A stretch of 64,000 bases of DNA, taken from the IMG/VR virus record IMGVR_UViG_2579778842_000003, one strand, 5' to 3'. This stretch comes from a virus. Its lineage: Duplodnaviria; Heunggongvirae; Uroviricota; Caudoviricetes. A program made the translations under genes and the position numbers. Below, piece after piece: positions 14,445-21,543 of this stretch (the first letter of the stretch is position 1; every line of letters begins with the position of its first letter). The notes under the pieces are model-generated. The model worked only from the letters and a program-made list of their open reading frames with translations. It had not been told where the DNA came from and ran no database searches.

Positions 14445-17400
14445 ATGAATGACGTTACAGTTGTTACATCAGTTACTTACCCATCACCCGAGTCGTTGGC
14501 TCTGGTGGCTGATGTGCAATACCACGAACCATATCTGTCAGCCGCGCTAAACAGAAAATTCAGGGGGATTGTTGACCCGGGATTTTATGCCGGTTTCTTA
14601 CCTAAGCCTGGCGGTGGGATGAACCTGTTAATCACCTCAGTGGATGGTGATAAAACCGCAGGCGCGGCGTCGGTGGATATTGGTGAATTCTACCAGGTAA
14701 CTATTCAGCACCGTAAGGATATTTCTCTTGCACTTAGTGCAGGCAAGAAATATGCAATTGTGCTGAAGGGAAGATACCTCCTTGGAGAGGATACCTATCA
14801 GGTTAATACCGCGTCACATATTCATGCGGCTGAATTTGTTGCCCGAACCTATACCGATTCATATCAGTTAGGAGATGGGGAGCTGCTTGTTTGTACGGTG
14901 AATATCCCTGCTGGCGTATCAGCCATTACCCAGGAGATGATTGATACATCCGAGCGTATTAACCGCACGATCGGCATTGATATTTCAGACTCTGTAACCA
15001 GTAGCAGAAGTGATGTTGCTGCAAGTTCGCTGGCAGTTAAAAAAGCCTACGATCTGGCGAAAAGCAAGTATACGGCGCAGGATGCAAGCACAACGCAAAA
15101 GGGATTAGTTCAGCTCAGTAGCGCAACTAACAGCGACAGCGAAACAATGGCGGCTACCCCTAAAGCCGTTAAGTCTATAAAAGATCTGGCTGATACCAAA
15201 GCGCCAATAGAAAGCCCGAGTCTGACAGGAACGCCAACCGCGCCGACGGCAGCGCAAGGTACAAACAGCACGCAGATCGCAAATACAGCCTTTGTTAAGG
15301 CAGCTATAACTGCACTTATCAACGGTGCGCCTGGCACACTGGATACGCTGAAAGAAATAGCGGCTGCGATCAATAACGACCCGAATTACAGCACAACTAT
15401 CAACAATGCCTTGGCTCTCAAAGCGCCTTTGGCAAGCCCTGCATTAACGGGTGTCCCTACTGCGCCTACGGCTGCACAGGGCACAAACAATACGCAGATC
15501 GCTACGACTGCTTACGTACGGGCTGCTATCTCTGCATTGGTCGGATCATCACCTGAAGCTCTTGATACCCTGAATGAGCTTGCAGCAGCACTGGGCAATG
15601 ACCCGAACTTTGCGACAACAATGACAAATGCGCTGGCAGGGAAACAGCCACTTGATGCAACTTTAACCGCGCTTGCTGGTCTTGCGACAGGCGCAAATAA
15701 ATTGCCGTACTTTACCGGTACAGACACTGTTTCTCAGACTGACTTAACGTCAGTCGGTCGCGATATTCTGGCCAAAACAAGCGTTCTTGCTGTTATCCAA
15801 TACCTTGGTTTAAGAGAACTCGGTACCAGCGGTGAAAAGATCCCCCTGTTGAGCACGGCTAACACATGGAGTTCACGCCAGACTTTCAACGGCGGGATCA
15901 CCGGGGCGCTGGCAGGGAATGCCGACACCGCGACGAAATTGAAAACAGCACGCTCGATTGGCGGTGTGGCATTTGATGGCTCGGCCAATATCAATCTTCC
16001 AGGTGTAAATACAACAGGTAACCAGAACACCACGGGGAATGCTGCTACCGCGACGAAACTTGCGACGGCAAGAAACATCAACGGTGTTAAATTTGATGGT
16101 TCTGTGGACATTTCGATACCAACAATTACGTCCAGAGGGCGTGTTACTGCGCTCACCGGTACAACACAAGGTGCTGCTACTGGATTGCAAATGTATGAGG
16201 CGTACAACAACGGCTATCCTTCTGCTTACGGGAATGTGCTTCATCTTAAGGGCGCAACGGCAGTTGGTGAAGGTGAGTTGTTCATAGGTTGGAGCGGTAC
16301 AAGTGGCGCTCATGCACCTGTACATGTACGTTCGCGACGAGATACTGATACAGCCAGTTGGTCAGAGTGGGCGCAGGTCTACACATCGAAGGATTCCATC
16401 CCTGGTGTAAATACCACGGGCAACCAGAACACAACCGGAAACGCGGCGTCTGCAACGAAATTACAAACGGCAAGAACTATTGGTGGTGTTTCATTTAATG
16501 GCACCGCAAACATCGACCTGCCGGGCGTGAATAAAACAGGCAATCAGAGCACTACCGGCAATGCAGCTACAGCCACAAAACTGCAAACAGCACGCACCAT
16601 TAATGGGGTTTCATTTGACGGAACGGCTAATATTTCTCTGTCACCGGCAAATATTGGTTGCCCGGCATCTCCTACTGGTTGGCTTGAAACAGGTGATAAT
16701 GGAGCATCAATAACAACAGAGCAATTAGTGACTCTGCTACGAGATAATGGTGCTTTTAATGCAAAGGTATGGATAGCGCGTTGTGCCTGGGCGTATGCAA
16801 ATAGTGCATCCATACCAGACAGCGAAACAGGATGCGGCATTATTCCACTGGCTGGCGCAGTTATAGAGGTATTTAATAATAGCAGTAGCACGAGTTATTT
16901 TACCATTCGTATAACAACGGCAACGACGACAAGTGTATCTGGCGCACTCACTAATGCTGAATTTATCTATGTGTCTAATGGCACAAGTTATTCACCAGGA
17001 TGGCGCAGAGCGTATAACACTAAAAACAAACCTACTGCGGCTGATGTCGGAGCTTTACCACTATCTGGAGGAGCGTTAACTGGCGGATTAACTGCTGCTG
17101 GCGAGATTATTTCCAAATCGGCGAATGGTCTGCGCATTGCCTATGGCAACTATGGATTCTTTATCCGAAACGATGGTTCAAGCACATACTTCATGTTGAC
17201 CGCCTCGGGTGACAATCTTGGAACATGGAATAGTTTAAGACCGCTTACCATTAACAACGCTAACGGGGCTGTTTCAATCGGTAATGGTTTAACTGTTTAT
17301 GGTTCTGTTGGCCTGGGTACTGCAAATGCTCTTGGTGGTAACTCTATCGTCCTTGGCGATAATGATACTGGTTTTAAACAGAATGGTGATGGCATTCTTG

Positions 17401-17894
17401 ATGTTTACGCTAATAGTCAGAGAGTATTCCGCTTTAAGAATGATGCAGCTTTTTCTTTAAAAAAATTGCTGGTCGGAGATAGTAAAACTTTTTCATTATC
17501 AAGTTCAAACACGTCCACTAAGAACGTAACTTTTAATCTATGGGGTGCCTCTACTCGTCCTGTTGTAGCTGAATTAGGTGATGATTCAGGATGGCATTTT
17601 TATAGTCAGAGAAATACTGATAACAGTATAACATTTGCTGTAAATGGTCAGGTGTCCCCCTCTAATTATAGTAATTTTGACTCGCGCTACGCATTAAAGA
17701 CGGCTTGTGTGACCAGCGTCAGACTTGGGGCATATAAAACTCATACCATGCAGAAAGGCACGATGTTTGAAACTGCTGGCTATGTCATTACAGGGCTTGG
17801 GATTATTGGTGAAGTTGATGGTGACGACCCAGCAAGATTGAGGCCTTTACAGTATTGCATTAATGGAACTTGGTATACAGCAGCCACAGCATGA
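14445..17894 (+). CDS. S: Tail fibre S (constant N-terminus Sc plus currently expressed variable C-terminus Sv)
   Basis: 1149 aa from the ATG at 14445 with an AAGGA RBS just after the R stop (the track ORF starts 87 nt earlier); contains a cix site at 15793-15818 and PGVNTTGNQNTTGNAATATKL repeats typical of fibres. Confidence 0.8.
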   Translation: MNDVTVVTSVTYPSPESLALVADVQYHEPYLSAALNRKFRGIVDPGFYAGFLPKPGGGMNLLITSVDGDKTAGAASVDIGEFYQVTIQHRKDISLALSAGKKYAIVLKGRYLLGEDTYQVNTASHIHAAEFVARTYTDSYQLGDGELLVCTVNIPAGVSAITQEMIDTSERINRTIGIDISDSVTSSRSDVAASSLAVKKAYDLAKSKYTAQDASTTQKGLVQLSSATNSDSETMAATPKAVKSIKDLADTKAPIESPSLTGTPTAPTAAQGTNSTQIANTAFVKAAITALINGAPGTLDTLKEIAAAINNDPNYSTTINNALALKAPLASPALTGVPTAPTAAQGTNNTQIATTAYVRAAISALVGSSPEALDTLNELAAALGNDPNFATTMTNALAGKQPLDATLTALAGLATGANKLPYFTGTDTVSQTDLTSVGRDILAKTSVLAVIQYLGLRELGTSGEKIPLLSTANTWSSRQTFNGGITGALAGNADTATKLKTARSIGGVAFDGSANINLPGVNTTGNQNTTGNAATATKLATARNINGVKFDGSVDISIPTITSRGRVTALTGTTQGAATGLQMYEAYNNGYPSAYGNVLHLKGATAVGEGELFIGWSGTSGAHAPVHVRSRRDTDTASWSEWAQVYTSKDSIPGVNTTGNQNTTGNAASATKLQTARTIGGVSFNGTANIDLPGVNKTGNQSTTGNAATATKLQTARTINGVSFDGTANISLSPANIGCPASPTGWLETGDNGASITTEQLVTLLRDNGAFNAKVWIARCAWAYANSASIPDSETGCGIIPLAGAVIEVFNNSSSTSYFTIRITTATTTSVSGALTNAEFIYVSNGTSYSPGWRRAYNTKNKPTAADVGALPLSGGALTGGLTAAGEIISKSANGLRIAYGNYGFFIRNDGSSTYFMLTASGDNLGTWNSLRPLTINNANGAVSIGNGLTVYGSVGLGTANALGGNSIVLGDNDTGFKQNGDGILDVYANSQRVFRFKNDAAFSLKKLLVGDSKTFSLSSSNTSTKNVTFNLWGASTRPVVAELGDDSGWHFYSQRNTDNSITFAVNGQVSPSNYSNFDSRYALKTACVTSVRLGAYKTHTMQKGTMFETAGYVITGLGIIGEVDGDDPARLRPLQYCINGTWYTAATA
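15793..15818 (+). promoter_or_regulatory. cix crossover site inside S
   Basis: ttatccaataccttggtttaagagaa resembles gix/hix-type 26-bp sites; about 135 bp of inverted homology with 21385-21522 begins here. Confidence 0.65.
15990..16650 (+). repeat. Coding tandem repeats in S (about 38-aa units)
   Basis: At least three copies of PGVNTTGNQ(N/S)TTGNAA(T/S)ATKL(A/Q)TAR.I.GV.F(D/N)G at nucleotide level. Confidence 0.7.
17096..17291. repeat. Internal inverted repeat, S copy
   Basis: About 195 bp nearly identical to the reverse complement of 19580-19775 (encodes AGEIISKSANGLRIAYGNYGFFIRNDGSSTYFMLTASGDNLGTWNSLRPLTINNANGAVSIGNGL in both S and Sv'). Confidence 0.8.
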
Positions 17895-17900
17895 TTATTA

Positions 17901-21497: not shown

Positions 21498-21517
21498 CAG
21501 GGGGATCTTTTCACCGC

Positions 21518-21543
21518 TGGTACCGAGTTCTCTTAAACCAAGG
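21518..21543 (-). promoter_or_regulatory. cix crossover site next to cin
   Basis: Reverse complement caatcctaaaccttggtttaagagaa; the right half is identical to the site at 15793-15818. Confidence 0.65.

Follow-up and report, generated by a model that had tools for sequence, protein, structure and literature searches.

Phage P1 is the textbook case of a two-state host-range switch. More elaborate arrangements are said to occur in its relatives: according to the work of Sandmeier, Iida and Arber from 1990-92, the Min multiple-inversion system of plasmid p15B reportedly uses one invertase of the Din family at more than two sites within the tail-fibre coding sequence, which yields combinatorial fibre genes. 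In the 1980s, Iida and Hiestand-Nauer are said to have described 'localized conversion' at Cin quasi-sites (cixQ), in which a true cix site recombines with a poor one and core mismatches segregate into two products, such quasi-sites reportedly being rare accidents. A P2-like prophage of Escherichia coli carries a three-repeat invertible tail-fibre locus with four coexisting variants (Goldberg et al., 2014; PMC4272514). The searchable literature yielded no account of four-state or nested switching in P1-like elements, and recent papers there still give two fibre variants. Here we analyze the C segment, with its alternative tail-fibre genes S and Sv' and the adjacent invertase gene cin, in a 64,000-nt stretch of Caudoviricetes DNA (IMG/VR record IMGVR_UViG_2579778842_000003), the whole of which is called the window below. 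The evidence makes it fairly probable that this locus is a P1-type C segment that has turned into a two-tier Cin shufflon.

The element and its two levels of inverted repeats

The window region is 99.8% identical to the 'Punavirus P1' record MH422554 and shares this degree of identity with a set of IncY-type phage-plasmids of E. coli and E. fergusonii, whereas the matches of classical P1, P7, and D6 are limited to cin and the constant part of S. Judged by these similarities, the window is a P1-like phage-plasmid in which a P1 backbone carries other modules as the variable parts of its fibres. The C segment (Table 1) is bordered by two 26-bp crossover sites in inverted orientation, which were compared with the published cixR and cixL sequences in the site table of PMC3241671, and about 120 nt of the outer inverted repeat next to these sites are perfectly identical between the two arms. 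Both cin, with 98.6% nucleotide identity to P1 cin, and the stretch that we predict to be a Fis-dependent enhancer acting in cis, from its match to the P1 enhancer, are intact in the window. The outer orientation is that of the window in four records and flipped in seven, including two YZLc records at 98.8-98.9%, and in the RHB13 plasmids the outer-flip junctions are confined to the outer cix half-sites. The outer switch belongs fully to the P1 Cin/cix family, every defining feature tested being present.

A second inverted repeat, shared by S and Sv', is nested inside the first one. Over their first 191 nt, its two copies differ by two mismatches, located at repeat positions 36 and 39, and in both fibres they encode the C-terminal 60-odd residues of a Gp34_trimer-type domain (Pfam PF21446; residues 834-936 of S). 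The only other inverted repeats of at least 60 nt in the window are two weaker nested pairs, and further long inverted repeats able to flip by homologous recombination, sought in the window as an internal control, were absent. Thus the first-pass annotation had correctly recognized the outer inverted cix sites with their flanking homology, the second repeat common to the two fibres, and the C-terminal ending QYCINGTWYTAA that tips 1 and 2 give to both of them.

Four natural isoforms

To map the isoforms, the window was divided into five pieces (flank, shaft A, inner segment, shaft D, and flank), which were then located in fetched plasmids. All four predicted arrangements are present in public complete plasmids: the window-like arrangement in pRHB13-C03_3 (state 1, CP057845), the outer-flipped one in pRHB13-C02_3 (state 2, CP057851), the outer-plus-inner flipped one in pRHB13-C01_3 (state 3, CP057856), and the one with only the inner segment flipped in pRHB02-C22_3 (state 4, CP058059). 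The three RHB13 plasmids, each of 95,217 bp, come from one pooled faecal sample of a pig farm; they show 0 differences across 50,000 bp outside the region and differ by one outer and one inner flip only, the sole change between C01 and C02 being the exact reverse complement of the repeat-inner-repeat unit. This lack of differences implies that switching is recent and does not reflect old lineages. Synthetic junction queries against PLSDB (at least 99% identity) identified 10 plasmids with the inner junction of the window and nine with the flipped one, stemming from at least six unrelated projects, and the RefSeq E. coli set contains further plasmids with inner junctions. Among isogenic siblings, inner flips are about as common as the Cin-driven outer flips. 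Altogether, four isomers and one deletion derivative were observed.

The fibre open reading frame (ORF) is intact in the real records of each of the four states (1149, 1294, 1306, and 1137 aa), with the conserved ATG of Sc leading to full-length fibres in all of them, and each tip keeps adjoining its own chaperone in every state. Two expectations of the first-pass annotation, namely that more than two host-range states are reachable and that an inner exchange leaves all but the distal tip and its chaperone in place, are therefore borne out by complete plasmids, isogenic siblings included.

Individual records carry other changes at this locus. In pDETEC74 (CP116091, locus 744-1448), IS26 stands in place of cin and the adjacent region; this only cin-less record has a single state, frozen as outer-plus-inner flipped. 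The siblings ETEC1734 and ETEC1732 (CP122809/CP122828, locus 2113-3650), which differ by an inner flip, have an intact cin and an IS91-family insertion that truncates Sc, and their fibre gene is probably dead, as the truncation suggests. In TUM2330 (AP026472/CP128959, locus 7405-7815), a third tip type lies behind shaft A and cin is annotated as 411 nt, possibly a truncated gene.

Crossover positions and the cix-like site of the inner repeat

Single-nucleotide polymorphisms (SNPs) inside the inner repeat served as linkage markers in 17 near-identical plasmids. Allele 111C adjoins tip 2 in all 10 of its copies; on the outer side, six of these copies have shaft A, three have shaft D, and one has a hybrid. 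Alleles 36T/39T adjoin shaft D in five of five copies, whichever tip lies inside. Every mapped inner crossover therefore falls at repeat positions 40-110, a 71-nt interval (17136-17206) that encloses a cix-like 26-mer (repeat positions 65-90, core 77-78). Markers 165, 168, and 171 likewise move together with the inner segment in the pair ETEC1734/1732. The two plasmids of the Quebec (Res13) pair, CP066198 and CP062890, carry their inner segments in differing orientation; the core is the exact starting point of their right-hand homology, and it was the 34 nt beside the core, not the 80 nt past marker 111, that the crossover used. The crossovers, few as these events are, are thus not distributed along the homology, and none was found beyond marker 111.

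The 26-mer was the top match other than the cix sites themselves when every 26-mer of the window was scored by identity against the window's own cix sites, and its polarity and codon phase are the same as those of the true sites. This resemblance taken alone proves nothing and is only suggestive.

A deletion joint at the core of the inner site

Both Quebec plasmids, which derive from a pig study, have lost 1.8 kb corresponding to shaft D. Their deletion joint, TGTGCTTGAACC-AT-GGTTTAGGATTG, is made up, without any shift of register, of an inner half-site, a 2-bp core, and the cin-side half of cixL. The switch point lies between two positions that differ in both parents, which leaves no microhomology. 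The metagenome contig ERZ1026890 NODE-270, 0.7% diverged from the two Quebec plasmids, has the same joint with the core TT. Serine invertases cut with a 2-bp stagger at the core; joining of the cores AT and AA/TT would thus leave a one-base mismatch that segregates into AT and TT products, as seen, and the outcome is a deletion because the inner site and cixL stand in direct orientation. As read from the DNA, the joint bears the signature of a serine invertase and indicates that an enzyme of the Din type, most simply Cin, can bind and cut the inner site. The suggestion of the first-pass annotation that the inner exchange need not involve Cin is thus not favoured, given the cix-like 26-mer, the crossovers in the 71-nt interval around it, and a deletion joint at its core.

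Deletion is the only type of outer-by-inner join that was observed. The predicted inversion joints O2-I1 and O1-I2 were both absent from PLSDB and IMG/VR, and O1-I2 was also absent from metagenome and GTDB genome contigs, in agreement with insulation of the two site pairs by core mismatch. Another deletion near cixL, at 2255-2275 of locus L022 (IMGVR_UViG_3300029516_000004), was not counted as invertase evidence. It joins the middle of U (about window position 18283) to a point near the cixL core, 1-4 nt off the core and within a GTT microhomology, and may represent either an aberrant invertase event or illegitimate recombination.

Invertase action versus homologous recombination

The most serious alternative is that the inner flip results from RecA-dependent homologous recombination between the 200-nt coding blocks, possibly stimulated by Ref, with the 26-mer being incidental and the deletion an unrelated, rare event at a Cin quasi-site. 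We regard this explanation as unlikely, even though the means for it are at hand. The homology is ample, with 191 nt at 99% identity, and the window encodes a homologue of ref (45254-45811, minus strand; 94% amino acid identity to the RHB13 plasmid copy), the Ref protein of P1 being a RecA-dependent recombination-enhancing nuclease. Under this explanation, it would have to be accidental that the 80 identical nt past marker 111 hold no crossover from at least three independent flips, that this marker stays with tip 2 in every copy yet is randomized against the outer flank, and that the Res13 crossover fell in the 34-nt stretch by the core. In addition, inner flips would have to occur among isogenic siblings about as often as flips driven by Cin, which would seem frequent for a homology of 200 nt on a plasmid of low copy number.

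Several observations weigh against invertase action at the inner repeat and for homologous exchange. The interval defined by the markers is 71 nt wide, the demonstrably independent flips number only three or four, and we estimate that uniform homologous recombination would yield the same linkage in about 5-10% of scenarios. On a Din-family matrix built from published sites, the inner site scores 9.9 bits, far below the 16-30 bits of natural sites, and does not match the family consensus, since one of its half-sites is good (10.3 bits) and the other null (about 0). By this matrix it ranks only fourth to sixth in the window, chance alone being expected to provide 3-5 equally good matches per 64 kb, or about 0.01 per 200 nt. 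In an unbiased sample of the block in other phages, with 63 unique sequences, third-codon positions within the site are as variable as elsewhere; this comparison gives no sign of DNA-level constraint on the 26-mer outside the P1-like family and says nothing about the P1-like subgroup. The 36/39 alleles are found with either type of shaft once more distant families are considered, which implies that the block has also been shaped by homologous exchange or gene conversion, and the inner copies are more alike (97%) than the outer arms (93%), again pointing to gene conversion. Chimeric tips joined at a third-level repeat of 67 nt exist as well, and no cix-like site is evident there by eye, no formal test having been applied. 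Finally, recombination by Cin between a weak site and the strong cixL, as in the deletion, is no proof of efficient recombination between two weak sites, and the assemblies are consensus sequences of cultures.

It is very improbable that artefacts of assembly, or ancient lineages that became fixed, account for the extra isoforms: a 200-nt inverted repeat does collapse in short-read graphs, so that orientation hangs on long-read bridging, and there is one consensus per record, but flipped records come from unrelated projects, siblings identical over 50 kb differ in orientation, SNP markers stay consistently with one side, the flipped segment is an exact reverse complement down to its repeats, and the 2.7-kb unit is easily spanned by long reads.

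Proposed two-tier mechanism

Cin, aided by the enhancer, inverts all 5.7 kb of the C segment at its canonical cix sites (core TT/AA), a step that we regard as shown, and thereby brings one of the two shafts, A or D, to lie after the constant part of S. We propose that a weaker second pair of cix-like sites (TTATCCGAAACG-AT-GGTTCAAGCACA) lies in the middle of the 200-nt block, which is common to both fibres because a Gp34-trimer-type domain is encoded there in each of them. Recombination at this inner pair may also be the work of Cin or of a host Din invertase closely related to it, and the inner flip would invert 2.5 kb carrying the two receptor-binding tips with their matched chaperones. In combination, the two switches give four in-frame fibres, two shafts by two tips, all four of which are found in nature. 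The differing central dinucleotides, TT versus AT, may largely insulate the switches from each other and thus keep outer-by-inner joins rare.

The arguments seem to us evenly poised for and against a more general proposition, in which one invertase would operate two nested switches made largely independent by their different cores, with a 2 x 2 repertoire of shaft by tip-plus-chaperone, and in which further Cin elements would gain such a switch for free. If it holds, acquisition of two fibres with a Gp34-trimer-type block would be enough to give a Cin-bearing element its second switch, and, as the outer and inner sites share the same codon phase, the rarer outer-by-inner joins would give in-frame short fibres and thus further states.

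Gene layout and other features of the segment

The genes, modules, repeats, and sites of the locus are listed in Table 1. Within shaft A, the first-pass annotation had described tandem coding repeats. A repeated fibre motif is indeed present, as three degenerate copies of 113 nt (about 40 aa) that are 71-72% alike (15999-16111, 16401-16513, and 16521-16633); however, only the last two are adjacent, and Tandem Repeats Finder made no call on them. Where the convergent genes U and U' meet, at 18459-18490, there is a perfect inverted repeat of 15 nt (AAGTGAAGGCCCGAT / ATCGGGCCTTCACTT), which, as its arrangement suggests, is probably a bidirectional terminator at the segment's centre of symmetry.

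Table 1. Coordinates of the genes, fibre modules, repeats, and recombination sites discussed in the text (window positions unless another record is named)
Feature	Position	Strand	Basis or remark
S, tail-fibre gene	14445-17894	+	ORF
Sc, constant 5' part of S, as far as the outer cix crossover point	14445-15805	+	ORF; Pfam Phage_fiber_2 repeats
C segment, 5.7 kb	15806-21540		bounded by cix sites
Outer cix site S1, TTATCCAATACC TT GGTTTAAGAGAA	15793-15818	+	core 15805-15806; letter-for-letter P1 cixR
Outer inverted repeat, left arm	15795-15959		partner 21387-21551; 165 nt, 93%
Shaft module A of fibre S, with three degenerate 113-nt fibre-repeat copies	15960-17096	+	ORF and repeat comparison
Inner inverted repeat, left arm	17097-17296	+	partner 19579-19778; 200 nt, 97%
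Secondary cix-like site S2, TTATCCGAAACG AT GGTTCAAGCACA	17161-17186	+	core AT 17173-17174; 18/26 identical to cix
Distal tip 1, receptor-binding end, ends QYCINGTWYTAATA	17297-17894	+	ORF; travels with inner segment in isoforms
Third-level inverted repeat inside tips	17662-17728 / 19207-19273		67 nt, 90%
U, tail-fibre assembly chaperone paired with tip 1	17901-18458	+	Pfam Caudo_TAP, E = 1.8e-21
Weaker nested inverted repeat	17913-18038 / 18880-19005		126 nt, 79%
U', tail-fibre assembly chaperone paired with tip 2	18493-19038	-	Pfam Caudo_TAP, E = 7e-29
Distal tip 2, ends QYCINGTWYTAASV	19017-19578	-	ORF
Sv', alternative fibre	19017-21497	-	ORF
Inner inverted repeat, right arm	19579-19778	-	partner 17097-17296
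Secondary cix-like site S3, reverse complement of S2	19689-19714	-	left endpoint of 1.8-kb deletion
Shaft module D of Sv'	19779-21386	-	ORF; part missing in site-to-site deletion
Outer inverted repeat, right arm	21387-21551		partner 15795-15959
Outer cix site S4, + strand TTCTCTTAAACC AA GGTTTAGGATTG	21528-21553	-	core 21540-21541; letter-for-letter P1 cixL
cin, serine DNA invertase	21545-22105	-	Pfam Resolvase and HTH_7
Predicted recombinational enhancer in 5' part of cin	22016-22087		72/72 identical to enhancer annotated in P1 AF234172
Deletion joint, parent sites	19689-19714 and 21528-21553		
Deletion joint, CP066198	6490-6515		fetched locus
Deletion joint, CP062890	8893-8918		fetched locus
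Deletion joint, ERZ1026890 NODE-270	5549-5574		fetched locus

Chimeric fibre tips joined in the 67-nt third-level repeat were found in two reciprocal forms. The N-terminal part of tip 1 is fused to the C-terminal part of tip 2 in five plasmids of PLSDB (LC257586, LC257589, LC257591, CP063350, and AP027855) and in L022 (about 1265-1330), and the reciprocal chimera is present in ERZ1026890 NODE-270 (5990-6051), where the switch lies inside a 25-nt identical run of the repeat; the other joints were mapped less finely than this one. Flips at this repeat were absent among siblings, the only cases being fixed chimeras in another lineage and the one metagenome contig. These joints suggest that there may be a third, rarer level of exchange.

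The block carrying the inner repeat is also widespread in coliphage fibres beyond this element. In 5,426 complete E. coli genomes, an 800-nt query across the inner junction has matching DNA at 514 chromosomal (prophage) places and about 280 on plasmids, most of it 80-90% identical. Among the fetched loci, the Gp34_trimer-type block (17055-17303) is the common part, and behind it come at least four tip sequences that are unrelated to one another; from this pattern, the block looks like a general shaft-to-tip adapter at which fibre mosaics are joined, with a bearing on the origin of tail-fibre mosaics at conserved domain boundaries.

Significance and comparison with known systems

Among the common carriers of E. 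coli resistance genes are P1-like phage-plasmids, and a four-state switch that permutes shaft and tip independently would widen the host range reachable from one lysogen. It would also make plasmid typing harder, since the isoforms resemble different fibre genes. If the proposed mechanism is correct, this locus would be a natural case of nested, partly orthogonal inversion sites for a single serine recombinase, a design principle that has been built by hand in synthetic biology.

The closest described relative is the C segment of P1, with which the locus shares identical cixL and cixR, a nearly identical cin, the enhancer, and the gene order of Sc, invertible Sv-U / U'-Sv', and cin. However, P1 has a single level of inverted repeats, which are 636 nt long and adjoin the cix sites directly, in a segment of 4.26 kb with two states, whereas the 5.7-kb segment of the window has variable parts that are unrelated in DNA, a nested second exchange point, and two more states. 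The AT and TT deletion joints fit the reported behaviour of cixQ; in contrast to those quasi-sites, the inner sites form an inverted pair of identical copies, and their products are functional in frame and common in nature.

The crossover sites of the Min system, which is alike in having extra sites, are listed in PMC3241671. All mix sites are good matches (17-23 bits) with a common AA core and are not embedded in long homology, whereas the extra sites of the window are weak, lie inside a 200-nt conserved block, and have an AT core, which would result in two nested switches rather than a free shuffle. In the P2-like prophage locus, as in the window, an invertase and extra inverted repeats give rise to four genomic variants of the fibre gene (Goldberg et al., 2014). 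That locus, however, offers three alternative C-termini by choice of site, whereas the C segment described here permutes shaft and tip independently in a 2 x 2 scheme.

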